This document shows positions 299 through 9,934 of a stretch of 11,295 nucleotides of DNA, piece after piece. Below the pieces are notes generated by a model, which made no database searches, was not told where the DNA came from, and worked only from the letters and a program-made list of their open reading frames with translations. A program made the translations under genes and the position numbers. The DNA lies in assembly GCA_964447495.1 (NCBI GenBank), contig CAYUTF010000016.1, positions 1 through 11,295 of the forward strand, read 5' to 3'. The stretch is from an uncultured archaeon (GTDB lineage Archaea > Asgardarchaeota > Lokiarchaeia > Sigyniarchaeales > SOKP01). Position 1 is the stretch's first letter, and each line of letters begins with the position of its first letter.

Positions 299-517
299 CT
301 ATTTTAAACTTCCGTCAACCATTTTTTTTGGCGAACTCGAGTTCGTTTCACCTATATCATCCTGATCACTAATTACCATCTTTTTGTAAAACTCAAAATC
401 TCGTCTCAAAACCTCAGATGGCTCTCTTGGATTCAATATGGCTTCTGCAAAAATAAGTGAATCTTCAGGAGACAACTCAAGTACTTCCATCTCCACATTT
501 TCTTCATTCTTTTTCAT
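299..517 (-). CDS. Small protein resembling the C-terminal half of DUF1778/TacA-type antitoxins
   Basis: LELSPEDSLIFAEAILNPREPSEVLRR resembles the DUF1778 pattern LS.ed...f..al.nP..pn..L..; no N-terminal RHH region. Confidence 0.55.
   Translation of the reverse strand: MKKNEENVEMEVLELSPEDSLIFAEAILNPREPSEVLRRDFEFYKKMVISDQDDIGETNSSSPKKMVDGSLK
332..345. repeat. Perfect palindrome CGAACTCGAGTTCG, copy 1 of 3
   Basis: Identical cores at 5934-5947 and 11279-11292. Confidence 0.9.
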
Positions 518-586: not shown

Positions 587-1642
587 TTAAAAAGGCAATG
601 TTGTTTGTTCTCCAGAACCTATACCAGTATATCGCCTAACTATCCTTCTGCCACCTATACGTTCAATATACTCAATAACCTCACCTTTAAATAAGGGATA
701 TTTAATCATCATATTAACCACTTCCTTCTCACCTAAAGTATATATCAGCGTAATCCCATCCCTTACATAACCATCACTACCAACTTTAGCCTCTATCTCA
801 AACCAACCTCTATCAATACACTCAGCTTTGGGTCTATTATGACGCCTACGCTTATAACCTTTATCTCTTCCATCAATCAAAAAACCAAAACCCCTCAAAA
901 GTTCAAACATCCTATTCTGACTAATTCTAACTCCTCCAACCTTAACAAAGTCTGCAAACTCACCAATACTTATCCCTCCCTTTCTTGCCATCATCGCCCT
1001 TCCATGAGCTGCTTCCTCTTGCATCTCATGCATCTTCTCTTCTACATTCATTATCCTCTTTGTCTGCTCCCTCGCTAATACTATAGCACCATCTCTCTCT
1101 TTCTCGGCAAGCTCACGCCCCTTCCTCTCTCTCAGCAGTACTTCAAGAGCTTCTGACGACATCTCTGGTATCCAAACTCCCTTCTTCACCTCTTCTTTGT
1201 TAATAATATCCTGTCCACTTGCAAGCTTTGGCAAAATATCATTTCTTAACCATCTTCTAAGTCTTACACCAACTGGTTTACGACTCAATAAACAAACGCC
1301 ATGCATTCCAGTCTCAAACAAAAGCATTGCTTGAGACCCTTTTAAAACGGGCACCGAATCGGTGCCTGTTTTTATAAACTCCTTAAATAACTTAAGTTTT
1401 TTGCCTTCCAAAATAACATAATCATCTCCATCAACGAATTCATTAGACCATTTTTCAGAAATATTATTTACTAATCTTTTCCCATCTCCAGCATATCCAA
1501 GAATATCTCCTATCTCTTTTGCTATCCAACATGGTCTACCTTCATAAGTAAAAGTAGTAATCGGCTTATCCTCAAAATCAAAAACTTGACTCACTATCTC
1601 TTGCATCTTCTCTCCTTCATTTTTCATCTTATCATCCATCAT
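587..1642 (-). CDS. Phage antirepressor-like protein, Bro-N domain plus C-terminal KilA-C/ANT domain (alternative start 1606)
   Basis: Bro-N pattern VFDFEDKPI...GRPCWIAKEIGDILGY...LLFETGMHGVCLLSRKPVGVRLRRWLRNDILPKL; coiled linker; ANT pattern ISIGEFA...ISQNRMFELLR..GFL...NRPKAECIDRGWFEI; GAAGGAG SD before the ATG at 1606. Confidence 0.85.
   Translation of the reverse strand: MMDDKMKNEGEKMQEIVSQVFDFEDKPITTFTYEGRPCWIAKEIGDILGYAGDGKRLVNNISEKWSNEFVDGDDYVILEGKKLKLFKEFIKTGTDSVPVLKGSQAMLLFETGMHGVCLLSRKPVGVRLRRWLRNDILPKLASGQDIINKEEVKKGVWIPEMSSEALEVLLRERKGRELAEKERDGAIVLAREQTKRIMNVEEKMHEMQEEAAHGRAMMARKGGISIGEFADFVKVGGVRISQNRMFELLRGFGFLIDGRDKGYKRRRHNRPKAECIDRGWFEIEAKVGSDGYVRDGITLIYTLGEKEVVNMMIKYPLFKGEVIEYIERIGGRRIVRRYTGIGSGEQTTLPF
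1344..1372. repeat. Intragenic 29-bp inverted repeat in the Bro-N coding sequence (encodes KTGTDSVPVL)
   Basis: AAAACGGGCACCGA-A-TCGGTGCCTGTTTT, 13 of 14 positions pair. Confidence 0.85.
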
Positions 1643-1661
1643 CTTCTCATCTTTTCTTCTT

Positions 1662-1690
1662 CAAGGGTGTCGCGTTTCACGACCCCCTTG
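1662..1690. repeat. GC-rich inverted repeat upstream of the Bro-N gene
   Basis: CAAGGGTGTCGCG-TTT-CACGACCCCCTTG, 11 of 13 arm positions pair. Confidence 0.85.
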
Positions 1691-1710
1691 TCTTCTTCAT
1701 CTTCTTTTTC

Positions 1711-1737
1711 GATGGGGGGACGAAACGCCCCCCCATC
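1711..1737. repeat. Second GC-rich inverted repeat upstream of the Bro-N gene
   Basis: GATGGGGGGACG-AAA-CGCCCCCCCATC, 11 of 12 arm positions pair. Confidence 0.85.
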
Positions 1738-1809
1738 TTTCTGGCCTTCAATTTATTTTTAAAAATTTTTCATTCAACAACACTTTATCAACTTTGTATG
1801 GTCCAATAT

Positions 1810-2058
1810 CTATTCATCACTCAAATATCTATCCGTATCTTCAACAACCTTTAAAATAGTCCTATCTCTATATAATATAATCTTTCTAATTAACCTCCAA
1901 ATCAATTCAATTCCAATCATAGCAATCGAAAATAAAAACAATAATCCATCTATTGATTCATCAAAATTGAATTCAAAAAGTTCTGCCCCACTTATTATAA
2001 ACAACAACGAAAAAAATCTTAAATCAATTTTTCCTATATCTTTTTTTCGTATTGACAT
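1810..2058 (-). CDS. Small membrane protein with two predicted TM segments
   Basis: Hydrophobic stretches FFSLLFIISGA and GLLFLFSIAMIGIELIW; basic N-terminus; co-oriented with neighbours. Confidence 0.6.
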   Translation of the reverse strand: MSIRKKDIGKIDLRFFSLLFIISGAELFEFNFDESIDGLLFLFSIAMIGIELIWRLIRKIILYRDRTILKVVEDTDRYLSDE

Positions 2059-2069
2059 TTTTCACCATA

Positions 2070-2393
2070 TTAATTGCATCTTTTAACTATACTAATTGCG
2101 TCTTTCATCTTCTTCACTTTTTTCGTAAGCCACCCACACCCCTCACACCACTCACAATCAACCGGATTATCACATCCACATGCAACAACACCAGCCCTAC
2201 ATGGTCCAACCACAAACTCAGAACCTGGTTTACATAAATATTTTCCAGATTCGTTATGAAGTCCCCAGTTTATTTGAACCAATTGCATCGCTCTACCGAA
2301 ACCAATAGTCTTCAAAGAAGACACTAATACTTTTTCAGAAGTTGTTTTTGGACCCAAAATATCATTAGCCTTATCATAATTATCAATCAACAT
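2070..2393 (-). CDS. Hypothetical Cys-rich, probable metal-binding phage protein
   Basis: PC...CGC....CEWCEGCGW motif; AAAGG SD; operon packing. Confidence 0.7.
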   Translation of the reverse strand: MLIDNYDKANDILGPKTTSEKVLVSSLKTIGFGRAMQLVQINWGLHNESGKYLCKPGSEFVVGPCRAGVVACGCDNPVDCEWCEGCGWLTKKVKKMKDAISIVKRCN

Positions 2394-6175: not shown

Positions 6176-6598
6176 TTATCTCTTAGTCCCTTCGAGGTTA
6201 GCCCCTTCGAAATTAGCCCCTTCGAGCTTGGCCCCTTCAAGGTTAGCCCCTTTAAGGTTGGCCAATTTAAGGTTGGCTCCTTCAAGATTGGCTCCTTTTA
6301 GGTTAGCCCATTTGAGGTTGGCCAATTTTAGGTTGGCATCTTTAAAGTTGGCCCCTTTGAGGTTGGCTCCTTCGAGATTGGCCCCTTTTAGGTTGGCCCA
6401 TTTGAGGATGGCCCATTCGAGATTGGACCCTTTAAGGTTGGCTCCTTTTAGATTGGCCCATTTAAGGTTGACTCCTTCGAGATTGGCCCCTTTGAGATTG
6501 GCCCCTTTAAGGTAAACCCCTTTTAGGTTGGCCCCTCGCAAATCAATCCCTTCTAAAATGGCTCCTCGCAAATTTCTTTCACTTAAATCGATTTTCAT
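6176..6598 (-). CDS. Pentapeptide repeat protein (paralog 1)
   Basis: Tandem A(N/K)L(K/E)(G/W/L) repeats with 15-bp periodicity; starts 3 nt after the helicase stop. Confidence 0.92.
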   Translation of the reverse strand: MKIDLSERNLRGAILEGIDLRGANLKGVYLKGANLKGANLEGVNLKWANLKGANLKGSNLEWAILKWANLKGANLEGANLKGANFKDANLKLANLKWANLKGANLEGANLKLANLKGANLEGAKLEGANFEGANLEGTKR

Positions 6599-6601
6599 TA
6601 T

Positions 6602-8815
6602 TTAACTCCAAATTCCATCAAACTTACCCGTAAGTTGAGTTTTTCGATATCTCACAAGAATCCTTTCCAGTACTCTGTAAATATCATCTTCAGCCGTTTC
6701 CATATCTATAGAATTCATCCAATGACCAATACAAGCATCAGGCTTATTGAATCCCATTCCATCCCTCAGAAAAGCCCCATCGCAAACACTACACAGATGG
6801 CCTAGAGCGCCCCTCAGTAGGCTCTTCCTTTCCTCGGTTAGTTCAGGTTCTGGCACATGAGAAACCCGCTCAGATTCCCGCTCAGCCACTCTCCTGATTT
6901 TCTGAGAGTAATACTCTCGATTGGCTTCATACTCAGCTTTACGAATCCTTTCCGAGAGCTCTTCATCACTCTCCTCTTTGATGTCTACAAAATCAGACTT
7001 TTTACTAGAAACTTTTTGGCCACCCTTGAAAACATAATCATTATCAAGAGCCATATAGGCAAGTTTGACTTTGTACTCTATAATATTTTGAATGTGAATA
7101 TCAAGAGGATGAGAAGAGACCAGCCTTTTGATAGTCACATTGTTACTCTTTTGACCTATCCTGCAAATTCTGTCCTCTGCCTGAATATTCCAAGAGGGTG
7201 TCCAGTCAAGGTCAACAAAAATCGCATTAGAAGCCCTTGTCAAAGTAAGACCAACACCCCCAGCCTTGATTGTCAGACCAACACCCTTCAATTCGCCAGC
7301 TTGAAACCGCCTTACAACATCCTGTCTATCCTCTGAAGACGTATCTCCGGTTATTACGTCCCATCCATCACGATTAGCCAACTCATCTATAGGGGCTCTA
7401 TGAGCAGAAAAAACAACAACTGGCGTATCAGTTTCCTCATGCTCTTCAACCAAATTAAGCATTGCTGGAATTTTAGACTTAGCCAGTAAAGCCCTTACTC
7501 GAGAAAAAGCATTAAAATCAGGAAGTGTATCAAGGTCAAGCATCGAAAAATCATCTGCATCAAAATTGATTCCTTGAGCATCAGCAATTTCTTGAGCAAG
7601 CTCTTTCAATTCCTTATTGAGAGACCTACTGGAACAATCAACCTCAATTCTCTGATATGTTTTAGGAGGTAGATCCTTAAGAACATCTTTTTTGAGTCTA
7701 CGAATCATGACTTTCTTCATCCGCTCAACAACTTCCTGAGTAGGAAGTCCAAACTCATACCCACCGTACTTACTACATGAACCATTGAAAAGATTAACAA
7801 ACTTGTTAAATCCACCCAAGGGATACATTCCAAACGCACACAAAACACCCCACAGGTCGAATGGTCGATTCATCAGAGGAGTACCAGTCAAAACCCAAAC
7901 CTTGGCAACATTTTTCGACAATTGTGTAACTTTCTGTGTCCTTTGGGCTTTGTAATTTTTTGCAAGATGACCTTCATCAAAAATAACAATCGTTTCACTT
8001 AAACCAGCACGTTTGTCTTCTGGAATGTCAGCAACCAAAATTGGTTCACCCTTTCTGTTTATTTTTCCACTATCCATGGAAGGCATCAACCATTTTGGAA
8101 GAATATCATAATTGACAATTACTATTTCCCCCTCTTTAGGAACTATATTGTCGTCTTTTTTACCCTTGACTATCCTAATAGAATAATCTGGTCTCCAAAG
8201 CTGAATTTCATCTCTCCAATTATATTTAACAGCAGAAGGGCAAGTAACTAAAACTCTTGATTTTTCAGGAATAGCAACAAGAGCCTGAACGGTTTTCCCG
8301 AGCCCCATATCATCAGCCATCAAAGCATGATTATGGAGAGCAAGAAATCTAACTCCATCACGCTGAAAATCATAAAGAGGACTTCCGTCAACCCTGACAC
8401 GTTCAGCTCGTTTTTCAGCCTCTTGACTATCTACAGTACCGACTGAAGCACGATTCCTTATACTATCAGGAACATCGAGTTTTAATTGGTCAGCAATCTC
8501 GATAACTCTGTCCAAATCCTCAGTCTTGACACTCACTATCCAGTGCTTTTCGTCTGGATTCCATCGAGCCCCAGGCATAGACCTGAGCAACGTAATAGCA
8601 TTTTTGTCATACCCCATGATGACCTTGCCATCCTCGGTCAATTTACGGACATTATCTCTATTCTGGTCCATACTTACGCCAAGTTTTCGATGACAAGCTG
8701 TTGATTTGCAAACTGTATGCCAAGTACCATTTTTAACAAAGGCAAACCCGTCACCCACGCCAACTTGCTCTCCACAACATTCACAACGTTTCGAAAATTT
8801 ATTTTTTATAACCAT
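6602..8815 (-). CDS. SNF2-family helicase/translocase, SMARCAL1/HARP-like
   Basis: Motif I ADDMGLGKT, motif II DEGH, motif III LTGTP, RRLKKDVLKDLPPK, AGGVGLTLTRA, motif VI QAEDRICRIGQ; HARP-like YD...LRSMPGARWNPDEKHW; N-terminal CxxC...C....C. Confidence 0.92.
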   Translation of the reverse strand: MVIKNKFSKRCECCGEQVGVGDGFAFVKNGTWHTVCKSTACHRKLGVSMDQNRDNVRKLTEDGKVIMGYDKNAITLLRSMPGARWNPDEKHWIVSVKTEDLDRVIEIADQLKLDVPDSIRNRASVGTVDSQEAEKRAERVRVDGSPLYDFQRDGVRFLALHNHALMADDMGLGKTVQALVAIPEKSRVLVTCPSAVKYNWRDEIQLWRPDYSIRIVKGKKDDNIVPKEGEIVIVNYDILPKWLMPSMDSGKINRKGEPILVADIPEDKRAGLSETIVIFDEGHLAKNYKAQRTQKVTQLSKNVAKVWVLTGTPLMNRPFDLWGVLCAFGMYPLGGFNKFVNLFNGSCSKYGGYEFGLPTQEVVERMKKVMIRRLKKDVLKDLPPKTYQRIEVDCSSRSLNKELKELAQEIADAQGINFDADDFSMLDLDTLPDFNAFSRVRALLAKSKIPAMLNLVEEHEETDTPVVVFSAHRAPIDELANRDGWDVITGDTSSEDRQDVVRRFQAGELKGVGLTIKAGGVGLTLTRASNAIFVDLDWTPSWNIQAEDRICRIGQKSNNVTIKRLVSSHPLDIHIQNIIEYKVKLAYMALDNDYVFKGGQKVSSKKSDFVDIKEESDEELSERIRKAEYEANREYYSQKIRRVAERESERVSHVPEPELTEERKSLLRGALGHLCSVCDGAFLRDGMGFNKPDACIGHWMNSIDMETAEDDIYRVLERILVRYRKTQLTGKFDGIWS

Positions 8816-9271: not shown

Positions 9272-9320
9272 ATCCTTTCGTCTGCAACTGCCAACAATAG
9301 GTTGCATTACGCGTGCCAAC
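9272..9320 (-). promoter_or_regulatory. 49-bp direct repeat copy A: sigma54-type -24/-12 promoter, leader and SD
   Basis: TTGGCACGCGTAATGCA (GG-N10-GC) at 9303-9319; 47 of 49 identical to 9886-9934. Confidence 0.7.
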
Positions 9321-9346
9321 CCGCCCGCCACAGAGTGACGAGCGGG
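9320..9346 (-). terminator. GC-rich RNA hairpin after the pentapeptide gene, without a U-tract
   Basis: CCCGCUCGUCAC-UCU-GUGGCGGGCGGG; 12-bp stem whose two mismatches become G-U pairs only on the minus strand. Confidence 0.45.
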
Positions 9347-9362
9347 GGGGGGTCGGTTCTAC

Positions 9363-9878
9363 CTATTCAAGGTAAGCCCCTTCAAGGTAAGCCCCTTCGA
9401 GGTTATCCCCTTCGAGGTTGACCCCTCTTAGGATGGCCCCTTCGAAGTTGGCCCCTTCGAGGTTAGCCCCTTCGAGGTTAGCCCCTTCGAGGTTAGCCCA
9501 TTCCAGTTTGGCCCCTTCGAAGTTGGCCCCTTTGAGATTGGCTCCTTCGAGGTAAGCCCATTCCAGTTTGGCCCCTTCGAGGTTGGCCCCTTCGAGGTTG
9601 ACCCCTCTTAGGATGGCACTTTTGAGATTGGCCCCTTTGAAGTTGGCCCCTTCGAGGTTAGCCCCTTCAAGATCTGCCCTTTCAAGATCTGCCCATTCGA
9701 GGTTGGCCCCTTTGAGATTTGCCCCTTCGAGGAAGGCATCTTTAAAGTTGGCCAATTTTAGGTTGGCCCCTTCGAAATTGGCTCCTTCGAGATTGGCCTC
9801 TTCGAAGTTGGCGCATTCCAGTTTGGCCCCTTCCAAGATGGCCCCTCGCAAATTTCTTCCACTTAAATCAATTTTCAT
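9363..9878 (-). CDS. Pentapeptide repeat protein (paralog 2; start 9878 preferred over 9911)
   Basis: ANLEG repeats; N-terminus MKIDLSGRNLRGAILEG matches paralog 1; AAAGGA SD 8 nt upstream. Confidence 0.92.
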   Translation of the reverse strand: MKIDLSGRNLRGAILEGAKLECANFEEANLEGANFEGANLKLANFKDAFLEGANLKGANLEWADLERADLEGANLEGANFKGANLKSAILRGVNLEGANLEGAKLEWAYLEGANLKGANFEGAKLEWANLEGANLEGANLEGANFEGAILRGVNLEGDNLEGAYLEGAYLE

Positions 9879-9885
9879 CTTTCTC

Positions 9886-9934
9886 ATCCTTTCGTCAGCA
9901 ACTGCCAACAATAGGTTGCATTACGCATGCCAAC
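9886..9934 (-). promoter_or_regulatory. 49-bp direct repeat copy B: sigma54-type promoter, leader and SD
   Basis: TTGGCATGCGTAATGCA (GG-N10-GC) at 9917-9933. Confidence 0.7.

Follow-up and report, generated by a model that had tools for sequence, protein, structure and literature searches.

What maintains a short GC-rich palindrome inside the coding sequence of a phage antirepressor gene, and why do two similar palindromes stand just in front of the same gene? In this study, we addressed these questions for an 11,295-nucleotide (nt) stretch of DNA, here called the window, which represents the first 11.3 kb of the 53-kb contig CAYUTF010000016.1. The contig is phage-like, with a composition unlike the rest of the 3.8-Mb archaeal genome bin to which it was assigned, and the gene of interest (587-1606, minus strand) has a Bro-N domain and a KilAC (ANT) domain, from which its product is a predicted antirepressor. 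Comparisons of this gene with several sets of Bro-N genes revealed that a palindrome in the segment coding for one particular Bro-N loop, which we refer to as the coding palindrome, is a feature of Bro-N genes at large and not of this phage alone. The term is an informal grouping of ours and not a published family. We are highly confident that the element is real, is present in every group sampled and is constrained at the nucleotide level. The explanation that we favor, which we consider evenly poised between right and wrong, is that all three palindromes in the window are copies of one DNA-level dyad that belongs to the Bro-N loop-coding segment. The features on which the argument rests are as follows:

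587..1606, minus strand: Bro-N plus KilAC (ANT) antirepressor gene, assigned by Pfam and by matches to the PHROGs anti-repressor Ant families.
1344..1372, no strand assigned: 29-nt palindrome within the gene; its arms form 13 pairs, one of which is an A.C mismatch when read on the coding strand, around a spacer of 3 nt.
1662..1690, no strand assigned: upstream palindrome B, scored by our script at 10 pairs with 1 mismatch and folding as a 12-pair stem with one mismatch.
1711..1737, no strand assigned: upstream palindrome A, with 12 pairs around a TTT spacer, one pair being a coding-strand G.U.

All three palindromes exist and far exceed what is expected by chance. They are GC-rich and odd-centered (centers 1358, 1676 and 1724, the two upstream ones being 48 nt apart), and the positions and geometry given for them in a preliminary description of this DNA were borne out by an inverted-repeat search, by our script and by folding. 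The arms are 14 nt long and 93% complementary in the in-gene palindrome (1344-1357/1359-1372) and 12 nt long and 92% complementary in palindrome A (1711-1722/1726-1737). On the minus (coding) strand, the RNAs of the in-gene palindrome, B and A fold with -16.2, -17.8 and -24.5 kcal/mol, respectively, corresponding to z-scores of -5.35, -4.46 and -5.03, and none of 200 dinucleotide shuffles folded as well in any of the three cases. The respective plus-strand values are -19.7, -13.9 and -20.0 kcal/mol, equaled by 0, 1 and 0 of 200 shuffles. A strict filter (9 or more pairs, 6 or more of them G-C, no more than 1 mismatch and a loop of 3-7) retained two sites in the whole 53-kb contig, both in this region, and none in the host contigs C1 (180 kb) and C2 (116 kb), which together amount to 296 kb. 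Such GC-rich stems are rare in the contig because its coding strand is very poor in C and rich in G (GC skew about -0.3 to -0.6). Further copies of the three palindromes were not found in the bin genome, where the matches were AT-rich chance words.

The in-gene palindrome, read from 1372 to 1344, codes for residues K79 to L88 (KTGTDSVPVL) of the protein starting at ATG 1606, and its dyad has 12 Watson-Crick pairs and one A.C mismatch around the center, compared with the at least 8 pairs in the loop-coding segment that we informally asked of a coding palindrome. That start is the probable one (ATG 1606-1604), with AAGGAG at 1617-1612 ahead of it, and the open frame extends further upstream as far as ATG 1642 (open reading frame [ORF] 587-1642, 351 residues). 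The KilAC/ANT domain (PF03374) was identified clearly (E 2.7e-9, 37.8 bits against a Pfam cut-off of 25.3) and the Bro-N domain (PF02498) marginally (E 6.1e-6, 27.2 bits against 25.6), the latter match covering residues 28-138 of the 351-residue ORF and positions 2-96 of the 96 in the profile. The ORF also matches the PHROGs anti-repressor Ant families phrog_130, 63 and 9438. Its Bro-N subfamily is divergent, having SQAMLLFETG where canonical members show GG.Q..INESG, and the palindrome-coded segment occupies the loop homologous to the canonical Bro-N loop, immediately ahead of the GG.Q / SQAMLLFE strand. Residues 1-135 were modeled with AlphaFold2 (mean predicted local distance difference test score, pLDDT, 83.6); the model places K79-L88 at the end of a helix (68-81) and in the loop ahead of a strand (92-97), residues 81-90 being the least confident internal stretch of the model (mean pLDDT 58).

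Evidence that the palindrome belongs to Bro-N genes generally comes from a sample drawn without regard to the loop. Viral contigs were scanned for NESGLY followed by 16 codons and W[VI]T, motifs that lie 3' of the loop, yielding 80 loci, 78 of them with enough flanking sequence, from which 72 representatives with <85% identity were taken. All 19 of the translations scanned from this sample match PF02498, as do all 35 translations sampled in total. The mean minimum free energy of the 60-nt loop window was -15.65 kcal/mol, compared with -10.61 when codons were shuffled synonymously (Wilcoxon 5e-12) and -11.64 in the remaining windows of those ORFs (3e-9; n=72). Individually, 30 of the 72 genes reached p<0.05 and 15 reached p<0.01, the loop window was the most stable of its ORF in 22, and at least 8 Watson-Crick pairs were present in 59. 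The position is fixed, with the palindrome center located -40.5 nt (median) from the Asn codon of NESGLY (interquartile range -43.5 to -38.5), and 66 of the 72 palindromes are centered on a base. The palindromes themselves and the peptides they encode are very diverse (for example L172, L140, L181, L196 and L212). Palindrome enrichment at this loop among homologs was a check proposed in the preliminary description, and its outcome was strongly positive; the element was found in all three Bro-N groups that we sampled. An inverted repeat was also apparent by eye in two very divergent Bro-N genes (L020 and L022, genome G256) from the same phylum as the bin, located 5' of the GQK / GTRE strand.

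Canonical Bro-N genes provided evidence of constraint at the level of single codons. A scan of viral contigs for D-K-G-V-x-K-x-D-T-L with all synonymous codons allowed found at least 110 stretches at at least 80 loci; all 80 translations look like canonical Bro-N, and 10 of 10 scanned match PF02498 at 90-99 bits. From the 76 loci with sufficient flank we took 59 representatives with <90% flank identity, in which the commonest 27-nt palindrome is AAGGGGGTAACGAAATGTGACACCCTT. Codon choice collapses over exactly these 27 nt (Lys AAG 59/59, Lys AAA 59/59, Thr ACC 59/59, Leu CTT 57/59 and Asp GAC 57/59), whereas nearby Leu, Thr, Lys, Ser and Gly columns of equal conservation, only a few codons off, retain a codon entropy of 1.0-2.5 bits. 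At positions 10 and 18 covariation is perfect: A-T in 31 cases (Thr ACx with Cys TGT) and G-C in 21 (Ala GCx with Cys TGC), with no A.C or G.T. Scanning likewise for D-G-V-T-I-R-D-S-I yielded 80 loci, from which 39 representatives were taken; in these, codon choice over GATGGGGTAACGATTCGTGACTCCATC is similarly narrow (Arg CGT 37/39, Ser TCC 35/35, Val GTA 38/39 and Asp GAC 39/39), so that in both canonical subfamilies the suppression of synonymous variation is limited to the palindrome. In both subfamilies (L023-L102 and L245-L324), silent sites unable to pair are frozen as well, at element positions 6, 9 and 13-15: Val is encoded by GTA, opposite G, in 51/59 and 38/39 representatives, Gly by GGG, and the central codon is AAA for Lys (59/59) or ATT for Ile (38/39). 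The sequence is therefore constrained besides its symmetry. The two subfamilies also share a purine-purine mismatch at 9-19.

In the window's own subfamily the palindrome is conserved as a structure rather than as a sequence. The set comprised 17 distinct loci, being the window, three viral contigs, two metagenome contigs and 11 genome contigs (L010 was dropped as a duplicate of L003), and in 11 of them, the window and 10 others, a palindrome is centered in the homologous segment. It is the best palindrome of the entire locus in six of the 17. Its arms are diverse, as illustrated by the window (AAAACAGGCACCGATTCGGTGCCCGTTTT), L005 (AAAACGGATACGGAATCCGTATCCGTTTT), L009 (TTTGAAGGAACCGAATCGGTTCCTTCAAA) and L002 (TAAACCCGTCATACGGGTTTA), the last of which codes for a wholly different peptide at the loop (VNPSYGF) with a 9-pair stem still present. 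In a gap-free alignment of the 11 loci, 86% of cells are paired, compared with 57.6 +/- 2.8 in shuffles (0/500), a percentage that is inflated by these loci having been chosen and centered by their best palindrome. Changes on both sides occurred in 12 of the 13 stem pairs with pairing kept, and the covariation score was 0.758, compared with 0.197 for shuffles (0/500) and at most 0.235 for slid controls. The stem of L005, a close relative, is fully paired, whereas that of the window has its one mismatch. A weaker inverted repeat (1311..1337), listed below, codes for GSQAMLLFET and is kept in L005 and L006 only, distant relatives being too different for it to carry any covariation evidence.

The upstream palindromes proved to be related to the same element. 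Palindrome B is a free-standing version of the canonical (DKGVxKxDTL) in-gene palindrome: over segment 1698-1662 of the window, 34 of 37 positions are identical to that element and its 5' flank in L075 and L101 (~170-kb database, E 2.6e-8), and the homology reaches 1698-1701. Palindrome A equals the 27-nt DGVTIRDSI element at 20 of 27 positions, and in our comparison the differences restore pairing. The upstream copies are thus very probably homologous to the in-gene palindromes of two other Bro-N subfamilies. The resemblance to the typical Bro-N loop, which the preliminary description had noted for the upstream peptide, holds at both the peptide and the DNA level, given the DKGVxKxDTL loci and the 34/37 match. 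The remaining features of this region are:

1311..1337, no strand assigned: weaker inverted repeat directly 3' of the in-gene palindrome, with 11-nt arms that are 91% complementary.
1607..1661, minus strand: purine-rich leader with a ribosome-binding site, in which an extra base relative to L005 and L006 breaks the upstream frame.
1639..1752, minus strand: stop-free frame (the "cryptic peptide") across A and B, homologous to the translated acidic linker of L002.
1691..1710, minus strand: acidic-codon spacer (EKEDEED) between palindromes A and B, part of a repeat unit of ~48 nt.
1810..2058, minus strand: ORF of 82 residues, the 5' limit of the leader, with similar DNA upstream of L005 and L006.

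Each repeat unit, ~48 nt long, combines a palindrome with acidic codons. Relatives differ in how many units they have and of which type: A-B in the window, A followed by a decayed unit in L005 and L006, and B-A'-B in L002 (A' being A-like). In L002, the array is a translated linker in an ORF of 962 residues (L002:430-3318), which shows that an upstream array such as that of the window can be coding. This ORF fuses four P22_AR_N domains, the acidic linker of three palindrome units, Bro-N and an antirepressor tail; no comparable GC-rich palindrome was found in its P22_AR_N repeats. It is preceded by an 80-residue ORF that is near-identical to the 82-residue ORF upstream of the window's leader.

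As described previously, the minus frame 1752-1639 of the window is free of stops, reads IEGQKDGGAFRPPIEKEDEEDKGVVKRDTLEEEKMRR* and ends in a TGA (1641-1639) that overlaps the ATG at 1642-1640. Its frame is not conserved, given the extra base relative to L005 and L006, and Pfam returned nothing for the cryptic peptide at E <= 1, so the expected Bro-N profile support did not materialize. Neither did a tblastn search of phages with the 37-residue peptide at E <= 10, with the low-complexity filter on, return a match. The DNA upstream of A is AT-rich with stops, and judging from the broken frame, translation of the cryptic peptide in the window is probably not to be expected. It is best interpreted as either a relic or a non-coding equivalent of the L002 linker. 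The exact leader pattern had no match in viral contigs, and no promoter was called beside palindromes A or B. In two canonical Bro-N loci on viral contigs (L024 and L038), a diverged second 27-nt element is located 221 and 357 nt, respectively, upstream of the in-gene copy, with 7 and 6 mismatches in 27.

How might such an element be maintained? In the explanation that we favor, selection on the nucleic acid would keep the element, while template switching within the palindrome would keep its arms matched. A protein would read the element in cis, either as a symmetric duplex or as an extruded hairpin, with some positions being recognized by sequence. The prime candidate for this reader would be the Bro-N domain of the gene itself, which could lead to autoregulation or cis-loading, and the upstream copies would then be spare sites or vestiges. 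The N-terminal domain of Bro-N proteins is taken to bind nucleic acid. A search of the PDB by sequence gave nothing below E 0.2, and Foldseek gave weak matches of the model to Dachshund/SKI-type and baculovirus Orf22 N-domains (best E 5e-3, template modeling scores 0.46-0.59); the Dachshund/SKI-type matches would be compatible with a nucleic-acid-binding N-domain. We nevertheless regard Bro-N as a tentative, on balance doubtful, choice of reader. A cis site read by Bro-N is ranked first among the explanations because no partner other than the product of the gene itself is sure to be present wherever the element is; the neutral self-perpetuating palindrome and the messenger RNA (mRNA) hairpin discussed below follow in that order. 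The possibility raised in the preliminary description, of an operator written into the coding sequence of its own binding protein, is thus a live candidate. A bolder version is that Bro-N recognizes the palindrome encoding its own variable loop, in duplex or extruded-hairpin form, that specificity drifts with the protein, and that the upstream copies are cross-specific sites or loop donors, making the whole a self-addressing module shared by phages and giant viruses; we consider this version unlikely.

Several observations weigh against this explanation. A good palindrome is lacking in six of the 17 subfamily loci (the GDTG..PS type and two of the three short-loop loci) and in 13 of the 72 loop-blind genes. 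In addition to the inflated pairing percentage in the subfamily alignment, the p values from shuffling synonymous codons were modest, at 0.01-0.18 for the ten best loci and not significant for the rest, which is because the peptide GT[DE]SVP is itself reverse-complement symmetric. For the covariation at 10-18 in the canonical genes, the flank tree needs nine switches, only two of which are on well-supported branches. Among the window, L005 and L006, 71-81% of Bro-N residues are shared but 6-8 of the 29 palindrome positions differ, which is awkward for a sequence-specific reader. Free upstream copies are rare in canonical phage genes (3/62 and 0/35), so an upstream operator is not general, and the canonical element was a single copy within the Bro-N gene in all five phage records searched. 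Strand preference in the loop-blind sample is inconsistent, the sense strand being the more stable in 28 of 72 genes and the antisense in 44 (p 0.06), and these data, together with the mismatches, are compatible with duplex DNA but provide no positive proof of it.

The alternative that survives best is a neutral one, in which an old quasi-palindrome in a permissive surface loop perpetuates itself by template switching and its deletion is barred only by the reading frame. Spacer inversions between near-identical relatives speak for it. The leaders of L005 and L006, ~130 nt long, are identical except that the 3-nt spacer of hairpin A is inverted, and the segments concerned (L005:620-660 and L006:3110-3150) represent a single clean spacer-inversion event. 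The spacer (1723-1725) is also inverted relative to the window in L005 and in contigs of the metagenome runs X2, X4 and X9, but not X3, and loci likewise differ in the in-gene spacer, which reads either ATT or AAT. In the window's own subfamily, whose members are few and divergent, the in-gene palindrome changes faster than its flanks, the window and L005 differing at 8/29 of its positions compared with 39/234 and 24/193 in the flanking coding sequence. This pattern is the signature of arm homogenization and spacer inversion by template switching. Both processes, with polymerase template switching as the mechanism, are described in PMC8604942 and PMC7202029, so that the mechanism is already in print, and the multi-base compensated arm changes and the clean 3-nt inversion seen here resemble those accounts. 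The lack of strand preference, the low model confidence of the loop and the hypervariability of its peptide also fit a neutral origin, as does the centering of 66 of 72 palindromes on a base, which would be expected from one inherited ancestral axis. In addition, four of the frozen synonymous sites face amino-acid-constrained bases of the opposite arm.

However, template switching as presented in PMC8604942 and PMC7202029 is a mutational mechanism and not a conserved element, and it leaves unexplained both the frozen unpaired silent sites and the fixed position in one gene family. Homogenization cannot account for Val GTA rather than GTC, for Gly GGG, for the frozen third base of the central codon (AAA, ATT) or for Thr ACG rather than ACA (31 compared with 4). 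Comparable palindromes are, moreover, almost absent elsewhere in the same genomes and ORFs, and the element persists over subfamilies with little common sequence. We consequently judge an entirely neutral origin to be improbable. A recombination hot-spot test was uninformative, the pairwise-distance correlations between segments all being low (0.03-0.28) with no drop across the element. Two observations made in the metagenome contigs were set aside as not biological: contig breaks at 1332/1368 in run X3, taken as assembly effects of the palindrome, and an 87-nt look-alike contig in run X2, taken as an unrelated hairpin.

A third possibility is that the element acts as a hairpin in the mRNA, tuning translation, pausing or decay, with the leader copies as 5' stabilizers or brakes. 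In its favor, hairpins A and B and L006 contain G.U wobbles on the coding strand, the canonical subfamilies have conserved sense-strand G.T positions (12-16 in 34/59, 6-22 in 36/39), and the coding strand is the more stable one for A (-24.5 compared with -20.0 kcal/mol) and B (-17.8 compared with -13.9). In the loop-blind sample, however, the antisense strand folds at least as well (44 compared with 28), and internal A.C/C.A mismatches exceed G.T/T.G (26 compared with 10). The in-gene hairpin of the window is itself more stable on the plus strand (-19.7 compared with -16.2). The strand data fit duplex or cruciform DNA better than an mRNA hairpin. There was no Rfam match at gathering score in window positions 1100-2100, and in eight related or canonical loci Rfam identified only two transfer RNA genes, away from the element. 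An mRNA role therefore seems to us quite unlikely.

The preliminary description had also proposed that the upstream palindromes may be silent donor cassettes, or relics, for exchanging the Bro-N loop; in such a scheme, the in-gene loop would be replaced from them by gene conversion starting at the hairpin. The part of this idea that stands is that they do copy Bro-N loop-coding segments, being versions used in-gene by other Bro-N subfamilies, and that the number and type of units vary among relatives. Exchange itself was not found: a type A or B loop is present in none of the 17 loci and none of the 14 homologous proteins of the subfamily, and no swapped-loop allele was present in the contigs of four metagenome runs, a weak result as contigs drop rare variants. 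Furthermore, the flanks of donor and target share no homology, no recombinase or reverse transcriptase was identified among the window ORFs by Pfam or PHROGs, and the units of L002 are simply a translated linker. We regard the donor reading as very unlikely.

Ordinary intrinsic terminators or transcript ends are the least credible explanation, a role that we would all but dismiss because more distant relatives retain the hairpin but have no T-run: AAAA and TTTT flank the in-gene hairpin of the window, a consensus scan lists a plus-strand terminator-like site at 1714-1733, and Rfam scores the region weakly as tracrRNA-like, as is typical for hairpins of terminators (27.9 bits; gathering score 70), but the scan found 4 terminator-like sites where 4.8 were expected, the T4 run follows the hairpin only in the window, L005 and L006 and not in L003, L004, L008, L009 or the canonical genes, hairpins A and B have purines after them when read along the coding strand, and the reading frame that contains one of the copies is intact beyond it in the relatives examined.

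The genomic setting is phage-like. The minus strand holds all larger ORFs of the window, and distant relatives were found on IMG/VR viral contigs. GC skew is -0.32 in C16, +0.40 in C8 and -0.385 in C26, compared with values near 0 in the remainder of the bin (31% GC), and the three contigs probably represent phage DNA, from one or more genomes, that was binned together with the host. The antirepressor protein was absent from the 134 other host-family genomes searched, PF02498 was present in one of 200 other genomes sampled from the phylum besides the bin's own, and a megablast search of the whole window against 50,697 phage records gave no match. The neighboring genes include an SNF2-type helicase flanked by two pentapeptide-repeat proteins (E 5.8e-46 and 4e-86; the three ORFs are at 6176-6598, 6602-8815 and 9363-9911, minus strand), and the second pentapeptide-repeat gene lies within a GC island (0.49-0.59 at 9301-9900, against a background of 0.26-0.46). 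Just downstream of the antirepressor gene, a 72-residue ORF (299-517, minus strand) weakly resembles TacA-like antitoxins (E 6.7e-4; 20.0 bits, below the cut-off of 21).

Bro-N is among the commonest domains of phages, prophages, baculoviruses and giant viruses, and to our knowledge its nucleic-acid target has never been defined. The coding palindrome is a concrete and cheaply testable candidate for that target and, at the least, a cis signal to respect in the recoding, annotation and evolutionary-rate analysis of Bro-N genes. It also offers a natural example of DNA-level selection overriding amino-acid choice in a loop, of arms evolving in concert and of spacer inversion between near-identical genomes. 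If it should be neutral, it would indicate that a coding palindrome can persist for long periods through template switching alone. Our literature search, which covered full-text articles with subscription journals and bioRxiv supplements outside its scope, returned no description of a Bro-N coding palindrome in the material accessible to it. The window contributes an example from a phage, in a Bro-N/KilAC subfamily that is divergent, together with statistics on phage genes (codon entropy and the loop-blind sample), a spacer inversion caught between relatives, and a relative (L002) whose upstream array is translated as a linker.

Among the closest parallels are binding sites that lie inside the gene of their own binder, as with parS in spo0J/parB, the origin in pT181 repC, lambda O and phiX174 A. 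As in Bro-N genes, these are cis dyads or hairpins in the gene of a nucleic-acid-binding protein that are conserved within a specificity group and differ between groups. Binding has been shown for sites of the parS type, whereas Bro-N is only a candidate reader, and the Bro-N site codes for a loop of the putative binding domain itself. We know of no replication or partition function for Bro-N proteins. Autorepression by I-TevI is similar in that one DNA-binding domain could serve both an in-gene site and a look-alike before its own gene, although the window protein has a KilAC tail and no nuclease domain, and upstream copies are rare in canonical phage Bro-N genes. Conversion from silent cassettes in pilE/pilS likewise involves partial unexpressed copies near an expressed gene, with non-B DNA as a possible initiator; unlike in that system, no silent copy was found to have an expressed counterpart, and blocks of homology in the flanks are lacking. 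Rickettsia palindromic elements are palindromic DNA translated in tolerant protein loops, but they are mobile repeats of 100-150 bp in many unrelated genes, whereas the element studied here has no further copy in the bin genome or in the five phage records searched. Finally, the coding palindromes of Nematomorpha mitochondria, according to PMC6649704, are perfect or near-perfect inverted repeats within coding sequence with both arms translated, as in Bro-N genes, and are up to 284 bp long and numerous, occurring in many genes of one genome. In contrast, the Bro-N element is a single one of 19-31 nt, located in one fixed loop of one domain family in unrelated viruses and frozen in sequence within subfamilies.

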